From positions 780,001-812,000 of the forward strand of contig CAVRAI010000004.1 in NCBI GenBank assembly GCA_963718915.1: a stretch of DNA of 32,000 bases, read 5' to 3'. This document shows, in pieces, positions 1,828-14,097 of this stretch (positions are counted from its first letter, which is position 1; each line of letters opens with the position of its first letter). The translations under genes were made by a program, and so were the position numbers. The notes beneath the pieces are model-generated. The model ran no database searches, was not told the origin of the DNA, and saw nothing but the letters and a program-made list of their open reading frames with translations. The DNA is from an uncultured Chloroflexia bacterium. GTDB lineage: Bacteria > Chloroflexota > Ktedonobacteria > Ktedonobacterales > JADMIN01.

Positions 1828-2940
1828 ATGGATCCGCGAATCTCGCGTTGGGCAAAGACGCTGGTGAACTATTGCCTCGAAGTCAAACCTGGGGAGGTTG
1901 TGCAGATTGCCGCGACATCGGCTGCCGAGCCGCTCATCGCGGAGGTCTATCGTGAAGTCTTGCGGGCGGGCGGGCATCCAGTATCCTCGATTCGCCTTCC
2001 GCAACTAACTGAAACACTGCTTCGTGAGGGCAATGATGACCAGTTGTCCTGGATTAACCCCGCCGACCGTGTGATGACAGAGCAGGTGGACTGTTTTCTC
2101 AATATCTCCAGCGAGACGAACACGCGACAACTTGCCGCGGTCGATCCGGCGCGGCAGGCGATTGCGCAGCGCTCTCAGCGCGATCTCCTCCGTCTGCGTC
2201 AGAATCGGCCCAACGAGGCGCGCTGGTGCCTGACCCTTTACCCGACCGCAGCCTACGCGCAGGATGCCGATATGTCGCTGGCGGACTTCACGGAGTTCGT
2301 CTACGAGGCGTGCTTCCTGAACAGTGAAGATCCCGCTGCGCGCTGGAAAGAGCTTGGAGCGCGCCAACAGTTCTATGTGGATTGGCTGGCCGACAAGCAG
2401 AACGTCCATATCATCGGACCGGGCACGGATCTACGGCTCTCGATTGCGGGGCGCATCTTCCGCAATAGTGATGGCAAGCGTAACTTCCCCAGCGGCGAGT
2501 TCTTCACCGGGCCGGTTGAAGATTCGGCGGAGGGCTATATCCGCTACACAGTGCCTAGCAATGTCAACGGGCGTGGTGTCCAAGATATTCGCCTGCGCTT
2601 TGAGGCGGGGCGCGTGATCGAGGCGAGTGCGGCACAAGGGCAGACGTTCCTCGATCAAATGCTTGAGATGGATGAGGGCGCGCGCTATCTGGGTGAGTTC
2701 GCCTTTGGCAACAACTTTGGCATCCAGCGTCCGACCCGCAACATCCTCTTCGATGAGAAGATTGGTGGCACGGTGCATCTGGCGCTTGGCAACAGCTATC
2801 CAGAGACAGGCGGGAAGAATGTCTCTGCCCTGCACTGGGATATGATCTGTGACCTCCGGCCAGCGGCGGGCGGGGGCGAGGTCTATGTGGATGACATTCT
2901 GGTGCTAAAGGATGGCAAACTCGTCCTCCAGCCAGACTAG
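1828..2940 (+). CDS. M29-family (AmpS/PepS-type) aminopeptidase
   Basis: Translation MDPRISRWAKTLVNYCLEVKPGEVV... and C-terminal ...GGTVHLALGNSY...HWDMI match the thermophilic metalloaminopeptidase family. ATG at 1828 is preceded by GAAGGGA 7 nt upstream. ORF track start 1780 is a likely over-extension. Confidence 0.85.
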   Translation: MDPRISRWAKTLVNYCLEVKPGEVVQIAATSAAEPLIAEVYREVLRAGGHPVSSIRLPQLTETLLREGNDDQLSWINPADRVMTEQVDCFLNISSETNTRQLAAVDPARQAIAQRSQRDLLRLRQNRPNEARWCLTLYPTAAYAQDADMSLADFTEFVYEACFLNSEDPAARWKELGARQQFYVDWLADKQNVHIIGPGTDLRLSIAGRIFRNSDGKRNFPSGEFFTGPVEDSAEGYIRYTVPSNVNGRGVQDIRLRFEAGRVIEASAAQGQTFLDQMLEMDEGARYLGEFAFGNNFGIQRPTRNILFDEKIGGTVHLALGNSYPETGGKNVSALHWDMICDLRPAAGGGEVYVDDILVLKDGKLVLQPD

Positions 2941-6289: not shown

Positions 6290-9149
<2,860 letters not shown>

Positions 9150-9616: not shown

Positions 9617-9646
9617 TTGCGAAAAGAAGAACATATATTCTATAAT
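9617..9646 (+). promoter_or_regulatory. Candidate sigma70-type promoter upstream of the PrimPol-helicase gene
   Basis: TTGCGA (9617-9622), 18-nt AT-rich spacer, perfect TATAAT (9641-9646), inside a locally AT-rich patch of otherwise GC-rich DNA. About 200 nt upstream of ATG 9853. Confidence 0.35.
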
Positions 9647-9747
9647 GATTGTCGTACTTGATGAGCTGGTCAGCCTGAATACGGCGCCACGCTATCCCGT
9701 TGCCGATTGCGCGCGGGGTGGCGGAGCGCCGTTTTTTCGTGGGATGA

Positions 9748-9845: not shown

Positions 9846-9874
9846 GACGACGATGGGGACGACGATGGGGACGG
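9846..9874 (+). repeat. 12-nt tandem repeat GACGACGATGGG, 2.4 copies, spanning the PrimPol start codon
   Basis: GACGACGATGGG at 9846-9857 and 9858-9869, then GACGG. This creates two in-frame ATGs (9853, 9865), read as MGTTMGT. Confidence 0.8.
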
Positions 9875-12312
9875 CAAGGGATGGTGAGCAAGGAGACAAT
9901 GGGATACTTGCGGCGGCGCGGGCGTACACGCGACGGGGATGGCGCGTTGTGCCAGTGCGGCCCGGCGAGAAGGGGGTGGCGATTGTCCGCTGGCCGGAGA
10001 TGCGCCTCGACGAGGAGGACTTGCCCAAATGGTTCGGCCAGATCGGGGTGAATATCCAGCACAATATCGGCATCCTGACGGGGGAGCCGAGCGGTGGGCT
10101 GATGGATGTGGACTGCGACGCGCCCGAGGCGGCGCTGGCGGCCTTGGAGCTGCTGCCGGAGACGGACCGTATCTCAGGCCGGGCGAGCGCTCCCACCAGT
10201 CACTACTGGTATCGGATCGACGGTGAGCTGCCCGCGACGACGAAGTGGGCGGATGTGGCGGCAGCCCTCTCCCGGCCTTCGGCCACCCTCCCCGACGCGG
10301 GGAGGGCTACGGCTACCATTGTGCCAGGTGGCGACGGCTCTGGCTCCCCTCCCTCTTTAGGGGAGGGGCTGGGGGAGAGGGCCGTCGCCCCACGTTCCAT
10401 GCTCATCGAATTGCGCTCGACGGGCTGCCAGACGATTGCGCCACCCTCAGTGCATCCGAGTGGAGAGATCGTGCGCTGGGAGCGCGCGGGCGAGCCGGGG
10501 GTGGTGACGGGGTCAGCGTTGCTGCGCGCGGTGGCGCGGGTGGCCTCTGCCGCCCTCTTGATTCGCCACTGGCCGGGCGAGGGACAGCGTGATGAGGCGG
10601 CGAAAGACCTCGCTGGGGTGCTCCTGCGGGGCGGCTGGGACGCGGATGAGACCGACCGCTTCGTCATGCTGGTGGCGCGGCTGGCGGGCGACGAGGAGTG
10701 GCGCAAACGGGCGAAGGCGCGCACTACGGCGCGCAAGCTGGCCGAGGGCAGTCTTGTGACAGGTGGCACGGCGCTGGCCGGGCGACTGACCGGGAACGCG
10801 GGCGCTGGCGAGCGGGTGGTGGCGCAGGCGCGTGCGTGGCTAGGGCTGTCGCATCTGTCCGGACTTGGCGGCGCACGGGGGGCTAGTTATGGCCAAAACG
10901 CCAGTTATGGCCAATATCAGGAGATGGCCACAACTGATACGTTGGCCACAACTGATGAGGGCGGCGGCTGGTTCGTTTCAGGTGACGCGGTGGTGGAGAC
11001 GCGGGTGAACTGGCTCTGGGAGGGGCGTATTCCGCTGGGAGCCATCACCCTGCTGGATGGCGATCCGGGGCTGGGCAAATCACTGTTGACCATCGACCTG
11101 GCGGCGCGTGTCACCACTGGCCGGGGGATGCCTCTGGGCGCGCCGGGTATGGAGGGCGCGGAGGGCGGCGCTGGCGTGGTGCTGCTCTCCGCCGAGGATA
11201 ATATCTCCGCGACGATTGTACCCCGGTTGCGGCTGGCGGCGACGAATATGGCGCGCGTAGGCTTTATTTGCGGTGTGCCGGAGGAGGACGCCGTGACTGG
11301 ACGGACGCTGCAACGAGCCTTCGTGCTGCCACACGATATCCCCTGGCTGGAAATGGCCATCCAGCGCAAGGCGGCGCGGCTGGTGGTGATCGATCCGCTG
11401 ATGTCCTTCCTGGATGGTGCGGTGAACAGTTGGCGCGATCAGGACGTGCGGGCGGCGCTGGCTCCACTGGCGGCGCTGGCCGAGCGGACTGGGGTGGCGA
11501 TCCTGATCCTGCGCCACCTGAACAAGGCCAGTGGAAGTAGCGCGCTCTATCGTGGCGGTGGCTCCATTGGCATCATCGGGGCGGCGCGCTCCGGGCTGCT
11601 GGTGGCGAAGCATCCCGATAATCCTGACCGCGAGCGTGTGCTGACGTCGATCAAGAGCAATCTCGGCCCGCCGATGCCGTCGCTGCGCTACCAGCTCACG
11701 GCGATCTTACGCGAGGTCGAAGGGTTGGAGGAAGACGGCATCGAGCATCTAAAGCATGTCCCCGTGGTCGAATGGCTGGGGGAGTGCGACCTGGACGCGA
11801 CGGCGTTGTTAGCCGCTACCCCGACGGGAGGGCAAGCGGCGGAAGCGAATCCCACGAAAGTGGAGGCGGCGAAGAAGTGGCTGCGTGAGGCGCTGGCGGA
11901 TGGGCCACACCTGAAGGATGACATAGAGCAGGCGGCGGAGGCGGCGGGAATTGCCAGTAGAACGCTCCGCCGCGCACGCGAACAGCTTGACATACGCGAC
12001 GAGCGCGCGGGCTACGGGTCGGCGATGCGTACCCACTGGCGGTTAGAGCAGGCGGCGGGATCTCTGCCCGTGACGACGATACAGGGGATGCCCGCGCCAC
12101 ATCCGCCAGTTGTGGCCAATCCGTCCAGTTATGGCCAACCTGGGATATTGGCCACAATTGAGCCAGTTGGCCAAAACTGCGCGCCAGCCACGGACATAGA
12201 CCCACAACCATCCACACGCTGCCCGGCGACAGGCGGGCCGCACGAGTATGCGCAGTTCCGCCACGCGGATGGGCGGCTGCGCTGTGTGGAGTGCGGTGAG
12301 GCGGCGCCCTGA
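9853..12312 (+). CDS. Bifunctional replicase: N-terminal PrimPol (archaeo-eukaryotic primase-polymerase) domain + RepA-like/AAA_25-type RecA-fold ATPase + C-terminal HTH-like and Cys-rich tail
   Basis: - PrimPol domain: RRGWRVVPV...GEKGVAI..., NIGILTGEPSGGLMDVDCD, HYWY, ELRSTGCQTIAPPSVHPSGE..RWE.
- ATPase domain: Walker A LLDGDPGLGKS, Walker B LVVIDPL, LILRHLNKAS.
- HTH-like segment: IASRTLRRAREQLDI.
- Cys-rich tail: RCPATGGPHE...RCVECG.
- Strong SD AAGGAGGAGGA just upstream of ATG 9853. Confidence 0.85.
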   Translation: MGTTMGTARDGEQGDNGILAAARAYTRRGWRVVPVRPGEKGVAIVRWPEMRLDEEDLPKWFGQIGVNIQHNIGILTGEPSGGLMDVDCDAPEAALAALELLPETDRISGRASAPTSHYWYRIDGELPATTKWADVAAALSRPSATLPDAGRATATIVPGGDGSGSPPSLGEGLGERAVAPRSMLIELRSTGCQTIAPPSVHPSGEIVRWERAGEPGVVTGSALLRAVARVASAALLIRHWPGEGQRDEAAKDLAGVLLRGGWDADETDRFVMLVARLAGDEEWRKRAKARTTARKLAEGSLVTGGTALAGRLTGNAGAGERVVAQARAWLGLSHLSGLGGARGASYGQNASYGQYQEMATTDTLATTDEGGGWFVSGDAVVETRVNWLWEGRIPLGAITLLDGDPGLGKSLLTIDLAARVTTGRGMPLGAPGMEGAEGGAGVVLLSAEDNISATIVPRLRLAATNMARVGFICGVPEEDAVTGRTLQRAFVLPHDIPWLEMAIQRKAARLVVIDPLMSFLDGAVNSWRDQDVRAALAPLAALAERTGVAILILRHLNKASGSSALYRGGGSIGIIGAARSGLLVAKHPDNPDRERVLTSIKSNLGPPMPSLRYQLTAILREVEGLEEDGIEHLKHVPVVEWLGECDLDATALLAATPTGGQAAEANPTKVEAAKKWLREALADGPHLKDDIEQAAEAAGIASRTLRRAREQLDIRDERAGYGSAMRTHWRLEQAAGSLPVTTIQGMPAPHPPVVANPSSYGQPGILATIEPVGQNCAPATDIDPQPSTRCPATGGPHEYAQFRHADGRLRCVECGEAAP
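10344..10384 (+). repeat. Full copy of the GC-rich hairpin repeat embedded in frame in the PrimPol domain
   Basis: CTCCCCTCCCTCTTTAGGGGAGGGGCTGGGGGAGAGGGCCG. Stem CCCCTCCC (10346-10353) pairs with GGGAGGGG (10361-10368). Translated as SPPSLGEGLGERA. Near-identical to the minus-strand element at 14009-14060. Confidence 0.7.
10885..10953 (+). repeat. Iteron-like cassette 1: 12-bp motif AGTTRTGGCCAA, two forward then two reverse copies
   Basis: Forward AGTTATGGCCAA at 10885-10896 and 10903-10914. Reverse ATGGCCACAACT at 10924-10935 and TTGGCCACAACT at 10942-10953, which is the reverse complement of AGTTGTGGCCAA. Start-to-start spacing is 18/21/18 bp. Confidence 0.75.
12108..12178 (+). repeat. 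Iteron-like cassette 2: same 12-bp motif, two forward then two reverse copies
   Basis: Forward AGTTGTGGCCAA at 12108-12119 and AGTTATGGCCAA at 12127-12138. Reverse TTGGCCACAATT at 12148-12159 and TTGGCCAAAACT at 12167-12178. Spacing is 19/21/19 bp. Confidence 0.75.
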
Positions 12313-12774: not shown

Positions 12775-13888
12775 CTACCCGCCCAGCGCCTTCGCCAGCT
12801 GCTCCGCCGCCTCCGCCTCCGCCGTCCGCCCCAGCGCACGTAACGCAAGCGCCTTGTTATTCCAGGCGCCGCGGAGCTTGGGGTCGAGCGCCAGCGCACG
12901 GTCATAGGTGACCACCGCCTCCTCGTAGCGTTTCAGGTCGTAAAGCGCGTTACCCTTGTTGTACCAGGCGTTGGCGTGATTCGTATTGCGCGCCAGCGCC
13001 TGGTCGTAGGCGACCAGCGCCTCCTCGGAGCGTTTCAAAGCGTTCAGCGCGATGCACCGGTGTCGCCTTGTCCGATTCCCAGGCCTGCTTTGAGCGGTCG
13101 TTCGGGTCGAGCGTTAGCGCCCGGTCATAGGCGACGAGCGCCTCCTCGTACCGCTTCAAAGCGTTCAGCGCGACGCCCTTGTTGTACCAGACCCATGCCT
13201 GCTTGTCATCGAGGGCGAGAGCACGGTCGTAGACTGTCAGCGCCTCGGCGGCGCGCCCTTGATTCCTCAGTGCAGGTCCCAGGTTGGCCCAGGCGGAGAA
13301 CGAGCCGGGGGCGAGTTGGGTGGCGCGCTCCAAGAGTGGCAGCGCCTCGGCGTATTGCTTCTGCGCGATCAGCGCCCGGGCGCGGGTCAGCAGATCGTCG
13401 GCGCTCTCACTCGGCTGCGGGGCAATGGGCGCGGGAGATTCGCCTGCCGGGGTCAGCCCGAGCGCATGCAGCAGACGGCGCGCCGCCTCCTCCGGCGGGA
13501 AGGCTGCGAAATTGGGCGCTTCGACACGCTTGTAGCTGTAATACGCCAGCCAGCCGTTGTCCGTGCCGAAGTCGTCGCGCGCGATTGTCCCCGCCGTCAC
13601 CGGCAGCAGCGCGCGCGAGGGGTCGCGCTCCTTCAGCTCCTCGGCCCAGTCGGTCTCGCGCTTGACCCAGCGCGAGGCGAAGGCATGCTGCGAGAGGATC
13701 ACCACGAAGATCGGGCGGCTGCCCAGCTCGCGCAGGATCTCGTCCGCCAGCCGCCCGCTGCCCATGTTGTGCTCGTCGTACCAGACATCCGCGCCTGCCC
13801 CGCGCAGCGCCGCCACGATGGTATGGCAGAAGGCGCTATCCTCGGTCGCATGGCTGACAAAGACGCGCAGTTGGGTCGTTTCGGCCAT
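12775..13888 (-). pseudogene. TIR-domain / TPR-repeat protein, interrupted by a frameshift near 13054-13078
   Basis: - N-terminus MAETTQLRVFVSHATEDS...VWYDEH...FVVILSQHAFASRWVKRETDWA is a bacterial TIR_2-type domain. AGGAG lies 8 nt upstream of ATG 13888.
- TPR units follow (AWANLG..., AWVWYNKGVALNALKRYEEALVAYDRAL).
- The frame loses TPR periodicity after ...DPNDRSKQAW (13079).
- Two further intact TPR units continue in another frame (track ORF 12775..13038). Confidence 0.7.
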
Positions 13889-14008
13889 CTGGGTCGCTCC
13901 TTTGCTCAGTGCAGGCTGTGTTGGGAGACCTGGGCGTGCCGCGCACGGCAACCAGACGCGCCGTGTTACGCCCATTCTAGCATGCGGGCGTGCCAGATGA
14001 CCAGGGGC

Positions 14009-14060
14009 GGCCCTCTCCCCAGACCTCTCCCCCGGCCCCTCTCCTAAAAGAGAGGGGAGG
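14009..14060 (-). repeat. Full copy of the GC-rich hairpin repeat (minus orientation), intergenic
   Basis: Minus strand reads CCTCCCCTCTCTTTTAGGAGAGGGGCCGGGGGAGAGGTCTGGGGAGAGGGCC, collinear with 10344-10384. Plus-strand stem CCCCTCTC (14036-14043) pairs with GAGAGGGG (14050-14057). Followed by GGCAGA x3 at 14057-14076. Confidence 0.7.
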
Positions 14061-14097
14061 CAGAGGCAGAGGCAGGCGGCTGTTGGCGATGAGCTAC

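Follow-up and report, generated by a model that had tools for sequence, protein, structure and literature searches.

Two four-site cassettes in a primase-helicase gene

The 32-kb stretch of DNA analysed here, from an uncultured Chloroflexia bacterium and referred to as a whole as the window, carries a gene for a predicted primase-helicase, and inside this host gene lie two cassettes of a short repeated DNA motif. Each cassette consists of four sites, two of which point forward and two of which are reversed (forward-forward-reverse-reverse, FFRR). The features of the host gene, an open reading frame (ORF), are given below in window coordinates.

9853..12312, + strand: ORF of 819 aa with PrimPol, helical domain, cassette 1 linker, AAA_25 (RepA/RecA-type) helicase, winged helix, cassette 2 linker and Cys/His tail
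10885-10953: cassette 1, FFRR; sites 10885-10896(+), 10903-10914(+), 10924-10935(-) and 10942-10953(-); start spacing 18/21/18; central spacer TATCAGGAG; codes for residues 345-367 (SYGQNASYGQYQEMATTDTLATT)
10972..11532, + strand: AAA_25 helicase/ATPase core, residues 374-560 (Pfam), with the Walker A motif GDPGLGKS
11857..12042, + strand: predicted winged helix-turn-helix, residues 669-730, with its recognition helix near 702-711 (ASRTLRRARE)
12108-12178: cassette 2, FFRR; sites 12108-12119(+), 12127-12138(+), 12148-12159(-) and 12167-12178(-); start spacing 19/21/19; central spacer CCTGGGATA; codes for residues ~752-775
12214..12309, + strand: C-terminal Cys/His tail, zinc-ribbon-like (CPATGGPHEYAQFRHADGRLRCVECG), conserved in clade homologues, small beta elements at a predicted local distance difference test score (pLDDT) of 72-80

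The degenerate 12-mer AGTTRTGGCCAA is matched exactly five times in the window, at 10885(+), 10903(+), 10942(-), 12108(+) and 12127(+), against an expectation of 0.00 exact matches in dinucleotide-preserving shuffles. Three further copies differ from it by one mismatch, namely AGTTGTGGCCAT at 10924(-), AATTGTGGCCAA at 12148(-) and AGTTTTGGCCAA at 12167(-), and the five exact and three near-exact copies together make up the two cassettes. The conserved unit is somewhat longer than the 12-mer, about 14 bp, with two bases added on the 5' side (YC-AGTTRTGGCCAA). Plain k-mer counting is uninformative in a host gene as GC-rich as this one; an independent cassette detector, which asked for at least four copies of a 10-mer on either strand within 90 bp with at most one mismatch, returned two cassettes only over the 32 kb, both of them in the host gene. 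The cassettes are real and highly non-random. The nearest further copy in the window is a lone one-mismatch site at 2705(-). It belongs to two partial matches in the peptidase M29 gene, 2705-2716(-) AGTTGTTGCCAA with one mismatch and 2786-2797(-) AGCTGTTGCCAA with two, which lie 81 bp apart and are probably due to chance.

When motif positions are compared with the ORF translation, six copies are read in frame 0 (SYGQ three times, MATT, LATT and LATI), and the two off-frame copies give VVAN at 12108 and VGQN at 12167, so the cassette copies use both orientations and three reading frames. The GC content at third codon positions (GC3) drops to 0.48 in the cassettes, from 0.78 in the remainder of the gene; overall GC is 0.48-0.51 in the cassettes versus 0.67-0.71 in their flanks, and the centre between the inverted pairs measures 9 bp. 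In a protein alignment of 16 homologues both cassettes fall in hypervariable, gap-rich columns, and the linkers that they encode are predicted to be disordered.

One could still imagine a role at the level of the peptide or the mRNA, either through the repeated SYGQ/LATT peptides or through an mRNA hairpin that paces translation between domains. The 18/21/18 spacing of cassette 1 does keep a single frame, giving ASYGQ twice and (M/L)ATTD twice, and both cassettes fold as hairpins with z-scores of -3 to -5.6. On the other hand, three frames are used in cassette 2, the coded regions are those of predicted disorder, homologues drop the peptides and keep the DNA layout, and in some loci the cassette lies past the stop codon. 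The sense-strand stems contain uncompensated A:C mismatches: in cassette 1 the forward copies have A and the reverse copies G. The spacers between sites of one orientation are neither conserved nor mutually complementary. With spacers that are not complementary and site variants that are not compensated, it is therefore the sites that are conserved and not a hairpin stem, and a hairpin or cruciform as the selected feature was rejected on the same grounds. The frame and orientation data largely refute a peptide or mRNA role, to which we assign a next to negligible probability. An Rfam scan found no RNA family over the cassettes or over the leader of the gene; its sole match above the family threshold was a SAM (S-adenosylmethionine) riboswitch elsewhere in the window.

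Pfam recognises two domains in the protein, Prim-Pol (PF09250, residues 22-212, 7.9e-19) and AAA_25 (PF13481, residues 374-560, 3.3e-32), and primase and replicative helicase domains are thereby fused in a single ORF. The PHROGs matches are to phage primase/helicase families, with residues 379-733 assigned to the phage 'DNA polymerase/primase' family. For the C-terminal domain, Pfam gave nothing meaningful by sequence alone, and a phosphatase match in a phmmer search against the PDB was spurious. AlphaFold2 modelling of the C-terminal 186 residues produced a winged helix at residues ~667-730 with a pLDDT of 95-98, followed by the segment coded by cassette 2 at about 50 and then by a small beta tail, whose Cys/His pattern reads CPxTGGPHEYA...CVEC. 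The winged-helix elements are reproduced in the full-length model, where pLDDT is below 50 for residues 138-180, 334-370 (which include cassette 1) and 735-787 (which include cassette 2). All Foldseek matches of the C-terminal domain in the PDB are winged-helix DNA-binding regulators (PadR, MarR, ArsR/SmtB), with weak E-values of 0.02-0.5, probabilities up to 1.0 and root-mean-square deviations of 2-4 Å; the winged-helix identity comes from structure prediction and Foldseek only. Among homologues this domain is conserved and its recognition-helix residues vary. The predicted winged helix is a candidate reader of the motif. Cassette 1 occupies the hypervariable, low-pLDDT linker between PrimPol and AAA_25, and cassette 2 begins 66 nt past the wing codons.

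A preliminary description of this DNA had announced eight copies of the motif, confined to this gene. Eight sites are indeed in place, but only five of them are exact and three differ by one base; confinement to the gene is correct for full cassettes in the window, whereas in related genomes orphan cassettes lie outside such genes. All of its coordinates, orientations and spacings were reproduced, as were the different codon phases (two off-frame copies and six in frame 0) and the AT-rich codons in a gene that otherwise prefers GC. Its placement of cassette 1 in the linker between the domains and of cassette 2 past the C-terminal HTH-like segment agrees with the models, the winged helix before cassette 2 being confidently predicted, and its view that conservation acts on DNA is borne out by the two orientations, the several frames and the hypervariable, low-pLDDT peptides.

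The cassette layout and its motifs in homologous genes

A protein search returned 454 homologues at E <= 1e-3, the closest of them from Ktedonobacterales-type Chloroflexota, and 80 genome loci of relatives were fetched (L-numbers below). A strict FFRR finder, set to 9-mers with one mismatch at the most, detected 34 cassettes in 1.27 Mb of homologous loci, compared with 0-1 in composition-preserving shuffles. Counted from where the AAA_25 match begins, about half of the 34 lie 960-1130 nt further on; this places them directly behind the winged helix, like window cassette 2, and some of the remaining ones lie just upstream of the helicase core. We also used an unbiased score, the number of columns out of 12 that are identical across all four copies. 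At the predicted position after the winged helix, a score of at least 8 was reached by 35 of 70 loci, compared with 14 of 2941 control windows (0.5%). The positive loci come from at least eight phyla: Chloroflexota, Actinomycetota, Acidobacteriota, Planctomycetota, Myxococcota, Armatimonadota, Hydrogenedentota and Dormibacterota.

In these relatives the starts of sites are mostly 18-21 bp apart within a same-orientation pair, and across the centre the distance is 20-25 bp; a compact 8-9/19-21/8-9 geometry is found in L035 and L040. The 3' cassette is inside the ORF in 11 of the 14 tabulated loci; in the remaining three it either overlaps the stop codon or starts 5-7 nt beyond it. Cys-rich Zn-ribbon tails follow the cassette in several lineages. 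A search for analogous cassettes in relatives, which the preliminary description had suggested, thus found them at the same two positions with different motifs, and its question of peptide versus DNA was answered in favour of DNA, as homologues lose SYGQ/LATT-type peptides and keep the DNA layout.

The motifs differ by lineage and yet are visibly related:

Window: CCAGTTRTGGCCAA
L002: CCAGTTRTGCCCAW
L109/L110: YCAAASNTGTCCAA
L001/L008: TCGAAGGNCGCCAA
L077: CCGAAGGGGGCCA
L003: CCATAGGSGCTCA
L044/L048: CCATAGGTGATC
L014/L029/L036: GAAGATGCTCA
L052/L055: CGAAGGKRRC

Most lineages have one cassette only. Two cassettes that bracket the helicase-winged-helix codons are present in the window and in L001, L002, L003, L008, L035, L086, L109 and L110, and the cassettes of one gene share their motif and change together. 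The clearest case is the closest relative, L002, whose gene is ~80% identical in DNA to the window gene: at motif position 8 all eight L002 sites have C where all eight window sites have G, and the amino-acid changes that result from this G8->C substitution vary from site to site. The recognition helix is also changed between the two (ASRTLRRAREQLDI versus TPKSLRYARERLGV). Elsewhere the same or a similar motif goes with a similar recognition helix (L001/L008, L011/L014, L044/L048), and paralogues residing in one genome have different motifs in both genome pairs checked, L001 vs L007 and L002 vs L077, the underlying motif scans covering L001, L002 and L077. The 9-bp centre shows loose conservation within the clade (~TATCTCAGG / CCTGAGATA); its sequence is asymmetric, and its orientation is opposite in cassettes 1 and 2.

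Two of the closest relatives, L002 and L008, come from long-read metagenome-assembled genomes and have broken ORFs, with a premature stop (CAA->TAA) at L002 11552 in the PrimPol-AAA_25 gene and several frame breaks in L008 9439-11994. The cassettes are intact in both despite these breaks, which reflect either pseudogenes or assembly errors.

Outside the fetched homologous loci, a viral-contig scan for the motif pair gave no match. A metagenome scan for the motif gave 19 matches, of which only L105 and L107 are relevant; the others are mostly unrelated tandem repeats in which the 12-mer happens to occur, many of them from coding DNA that is repetitive or low in GC. No record was returned when P0001 and P0012 were looked up as exact proteins.

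We consider it highly probable that the cassettes are cognate protein-binding sites of the product of the surrounding gene. The FFRR cis-architecture of PrimPol/AAA_25-winged-helix replication proteins is widespread and, as far as literature searches show, previously undescribed.

Promoter, chromosomal neighbourhood and family context

Upstream of the host gene and within its PrimPol domain, the following further features were found:

9617..9646, + strand: promoter-like site TTGCGA-18-TATAAT (promoter scan)
9628-9641, between the promoter hexamers: LexA (Cheo)-box-like palindrome AGAACATATATTCT, found by a GAAC-N4-GTTC search with 1 mismatch
9682..9745, + strand: conserved 5' leader hairpin followed by a T-run, terminator/attenuator-like, between promoter and start codon
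10257..10392, no strand assigned: GC-rich hairpin repeat resembling repetitive extragenic palindromes (REP-like), an in-frame insert in the PrimPol domain, residues ~136-180, pLDDT ~30 at 138-180

The palindrome in the promoter has the form AGAAC-N4-(G/A)TTCT, and most of 10 related loci have a perfect or near-perfect AGAAC-N4-GTTCT in this position. The LexA box of B. subtilis is GAACN4GTTC (PMC4234289), and the palindrome matches this Gram-positive box. The box thus suggests SOS control of the primase-helicase gene, and because it sits in the promoter, expression is probably inducible by DNA damage. The leader folds into a consensus structure over 11 loci (27 pairs, -35.8 kcal/mol) with a variable apex, and a terminator-like match is located at 9720-9733.

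The REP-like insert is missing from several homologues and has a second window copy at 14024-14065; its core is ~CCCTCTCCCC..GCCCCTCCCCTAAAAGGGAGGGG, and many copies exist in L001, L002, L007, L008, L047, L076, L077 and L105. Further REP-like copies adjoin PrimPol genes at the 3' end, and part of their sequence is translated in P0003 and P0004, where it extends the C-terminus. The insert is outside the cassette system, and the ORF tolerates DNA-level elements.

The upstream neighbours of the host gene are PolX, peptidase M29, homoserine dehydrogenase, an amino-acid kinase (aak), asd and a metX-metY fusion, and downstream lie a TIR-TPR gene, FAA hydrolase and FdhD. The SAM riboswitch mentioned above (RF00162, 9385-9498 on the minus strand, 71 bits, E 7e-16) is located upstream of the 912-aa ORF 6290-9028 (-), which is a fusion of an alpha/beta hydrolase (MetX-like) and a Cys/Met pyridoxal-phosphate enzyme (MetY-like). 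The TIR-TPR gene, 12950-13975 (-), stands just downstream of the host gene and matched the PADLOC TIR families ThsB-like, TIR-NLR and PDC-S66; such a gene also follows another PrimPol copy in L077 (~12800-13840), and it may be a linked cargo.

The order aak-asd-metXY followed by the PrimPol gene is the same in L008 and L110; the M29 and homoserine-dehydrogenase genes further upstream are common to the window and L110 only, and adenosine deaminase is found downstream in L008 and L110. The window, L008 and L110 therefore represent one chromosomal site with three different cassette motifs. Between the window and L008 the flanking intergenic DNA is 83% identical, compared with 69% nucleotide identity for the gene.

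This turnover at one site bears on the idea of site-specific recombination, with the cassettes as recombination sites on both sides of the helicase/winged-helix module for its inversion, excision or exchange. Three helicase/motif types at one chromosomal locus would fit such an idea, as would the facts that the two self-palindromic cassettes exactly flank the AAA_25-winged-helix segment and that an inverted pair around 9 bp is similar in form to the core site of a recombinase. Yet neither the window nor the other solo loci contain a recombinase, most lineages have a single cassette, and excision of the module would destroy the gene. Recombination sites are therefore, in our view, very improbable.

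As to the wider family, small plasmids such as C. glutamicum pCG2 (6.8 kb) have a helicase-winged-helix homologue as their main gene; such homologues also occur in a 22-kb Streptomyces plasmid that codes for GntR, ParA and an integrase as well, on 4-5-kb faecal contigs, and in Mycobacterium and Microbacterium phages (actinophages), where they are annotated as primase or primase/helicase. Distant full-length homologues stand in islands of the order HTH_17 gene, PrimPol/AAA_25, tyrosine integrase (Rubrobacter, Pyrinomonadaceae). These plasmid, phage and island homologues mark the family as replication proteins of mobile elements. Downstream of two other Chloroflexota PrimPol-AAA_25 genes, in L085 12679-18145 and L086 12976-20882, comes a Type ISP restriction-modification enzyme or an NB-ARC/TPR protein; a large terminase subunit (Terminase_6N) is close by, and no integrase is encoded within 10 kb. 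These regions look like satellites or defence islands. At the end of a Hydrogenedentota contig (L032 58-803), a short palindromic repeat (GCTCCCCACG and its inverse) recurs every 65-69 bp over ~750 bp, in what looks like a CRISPR array.

A possible self-loading origin embedded in the gene

The closest published analogue of this arrangement is the Rep-ori module of Staphylococcus aureus pathogenicity islands (SaPI) and phage-inducible chromosomal islands (PICI). SaPI Rep, a helicase that loads itself, recognises short repeats through its C-terminal winged helix. Its ori is immediately 3' of rep and has an AT-rich centre flanked on either side by two or more repeats, in opposite directions; in SaPI5 primase and Rep are fused (PriRep5) (PMC9371898). 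The host gene resembles this module in its primase, fused or adjacent to what is here a predicted self-loading helicase, in its C-terminal winged helix, in repeats that directly follow the winged-helix codons, at least two per side and in opposite directions around a centre, and in a specificity that differs between elements. It would work alike but is not a member. Its helicase core is of the RecA-type AAA_25 kind, while that of SaPI Rep is AAA+ (SF3/MCM-related), and its primase is a PrimPol that belongs to the archaeo-eukaryotic primases (AEP). The sites are 12-14 bp long at a pitch of ~19 bp instead of 5-6-bp iterons, the centre is 9 bp instead of a long AT-rich stretch, the putative origin is translated within the ORF with a Zn-ribbon tail after it, and a second cassette precedes the helicase domain. 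Moreover, the integrase, repressor and packaging genes of a SaPI island are absent from the 32-kb window; it is distant homologues that stand in HTH_17...integrase islands.

As cassette 2 reproduces the logic of SaPI Rep-ori, we propose a sequence of loading, melting and priming. The host protein would be a self-loading primase-helicase composed of PrimPol, the AAA_25 helicase and the C-terminal winged helix, and in a helicase oligomer each winged helix would recognise one 12-14-bp site (YCAGTTRTGGCCAA). Two inward-pointing pairs around a short, relatively AT-rich centre could then seat two oppositely oriented helicase assemblies, after which the less GC-rich cassette would melt and the PrimPol domain would prime. 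Cassette 2, right after the winged-helix codons, would be the origin that is ancestral in the family, and cassette 1 a second copy specific to the clade, either a second loading site or a pairing or control site like crr of phage P4. Placing the sites beside the codons of the reader domain would keep specificity and target linked. We regard the full reading, cognate winged-helix sites that form a helicase self-loading origin embedded in the ORF, as reasonably probable, with less assurance than the binding of the cognate protein as such.

Other known systems share parts of this design, and phages lambda and P4, both named as precedents in the preliminary description, proved to be apt choices. 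The alpha protein of P4 is a single polypeptide with primase, helicase and a C-terminal winged-helix origin binder, and its ori and crr, ~4.5 kb apart and outside the alpha linker regions, contain the same motif in 8-bp repeats. P4 has this domain make-up in common with the host gene, and also the duplicated cis region, two separate regions with one repeated motif; its primase and helicase folds are unrelated, and here 1.2 kb separates the two regions, which enclose the helicase-winged-helix codons and are each strictly FFRR. With lambda O and ori-lambda the sole shared feature is that initiator repeats lie inside the initiator gene, in a segment for an interdomain linker. There, four tandem 19-bp sites and an AT-rich region are found, as opposed to inverted pairs without a long AT-rich tract here, and O is not a helicase and recruits DnaB via P, whereas here the candidate initiator is the helicase itself.

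RepAM of pMEA300, from the integrative conjugative elements of actinomycetes, binds several short repeats of identical sequence where the 3' end of its own gene can form a hairpin (PMC2440964) and is a DUF3631/PF12307 protein (PMC3218068). Cassette 2, with its predicted sites, is likewise in the 3' part of the ORF and folds as a hairpin; by contrast, the RepAM repeats are 8 bp long and RepAM was proposed to act by rolling-circle nicking. Membership of the RepAM group was rejected, as Pfam gives only Prim-Pol and AAA_25 and no DUF3631. The four-site FFRR arrangement itself recalls site II of SV40 large T. At site II, four such sites assemble two head-to-head helicase hexamers; they are 5-bp GAGGC sites with 1-bp spacers in non-coding DNA of a eukaryotic virus with an SF3 helicase, while the sites described here are inside coding sequence, 12-14 bp long, and go with a bacterial AAA_25 helicase. 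Initiator sites at or in the initiator gene, and inverted pairs that load a helicase, are thus of an already known kind. New are the RecA-type helicase, the sites in translated linkers, the duplication around the helicase module, the spread over many phyla and the solo copies with a LexA-box promoter.

An origin is not the only role that binding sites may have. The cassettes might be operator or control sites, acting as an in-gene transcription roadblock or by pairing of the two cassettes (handcuffing, copy control), bound by the host protein or by another DNA-binding protein. Two cassettes of the same specificity 1.2 kb apart in a transcribed region would suit this; layered control is already present in the form of the LexA box and the leader terminator, and a review of RepAM raises a regulatory role of in-gene sites (PMC2440964). 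On the other hand, the position that is common to the family, 3' of the gene and often after or across the stop codon, is a poor one for an operator, and the inverted two-plus-two geometry fits helicase-loading origins. We rate control sites instead of an origin as rather unlikely; the two roles are not mutually exclusive.

Several observations weigh against the self-loading origin. The centre of the inverted pairs is just 9 bp, and a long AT-rich unwinding element is lacking. No integrase, excisionase, transposase, repressor, packaging, partition or other mobile-element gene was found in the 32-kb window, and solo copies between housekeeping genes occur also in L001/L083, L035 and L110. The strict finder gave no FFRR cassette in the homologues of Rubrobacter (L081/L082), Pyrinomonadaceae (L084), pCG2 (L087), the Streptomyces plasmid (L088) and the faecal contig (L089), and the layout is therefore common and not universal. 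Lastly, related genomes have orphan cassettes of the window motif family at places outside PrimPol genes:

L002 16200-16280: orphan cassette flanked by REP-like hairpins, with GGCC- and GCCC-type sites mixed
L105 127-200 and 563-623: orphan cassettes adjoining REP-like hairpins
L107 2767-2817: orphan cassette after a gene of the major facilitator superfamily (MFS-like)

The orphans and the solo context leave two other readings alive. According to the first, the cassettes are a dispersed palindromic repeat, selfish DNA similar to REP elements or miniature inverted-repeat transposable elements (MITE), that landed in permissive linkers of the ORF. The intergenic position of the orphans in L002, L105 and L107 and the REP-like hairpins next to those of L002 and L105 point that way, and the ORF does tolerate an in-frame REP-like insert at 10257-10392. 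Set against the pattern of MITE/REP-type dispersal, related genomes do have orphan copies, but the window, the part of the source genome that was counted, has two cassette copies, both in the gene and with different spacers, and no third cassette. Only the 12-14-mers are conserved throughout, the same-orientation spacers not at all and the 9-bp centre loosely; the position next to the winged helix is conserved in at least eight phyla with lineage-specific motifs; and both cassettes of a gene share their motif and change together. Because of this positional and motif-specific conservation, a dispersed repeat is an improbable explanation.

The second is that the locus is a single-gene, integrase-less replicon module fixed in the chromosome of Ktedonobacterales-type Chloroflexota, and not an island relic. 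Such a module would consist of a LexA-controlled promoter, a leader attenuator, the primase-helicase gene and two origin cassettes in the gene's own linkers. One may speculate that it is a private local origin that fires after DNA damage, either for in-situ amplification of the locus and of neighbouring genes, for instance the TIR-TPR gene as cargo, or as a back-up start of replication. Its specificity would diversify fast, with three motif types at one orthologous locus and orthogonal motifs in co-resident paralogues. This proposal draws on observed features (synteny, solo status, LexA box, motif turnover); the module itself we put forward as a doubtful, tentative possibility.

If the cassettes are origins of the self-loading type proposed above, a simple rule for finding origins would follow, namely a two-plus-two inverted repeat right after the winged-helix codons. 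The rule would cover a very large, mostly unstudied family of PrimPol or stand-alone AAA_25 helicases with a winged helix, present in at least eight phyla and in islands, plasmids and phages. The same DNA would then encode a flexible linker and serve as the protein's own docking site, which would make specificity and target genetically inseparable. The concerted G8->C change between close relatives and the three motifs at one locus would provide a natural series on the evolution of initiator specificity. Finally, a solo, probably SOS-controlled copy between housekeeping genes raises the possibility of damage-induced local replication in this little-studied phylum.

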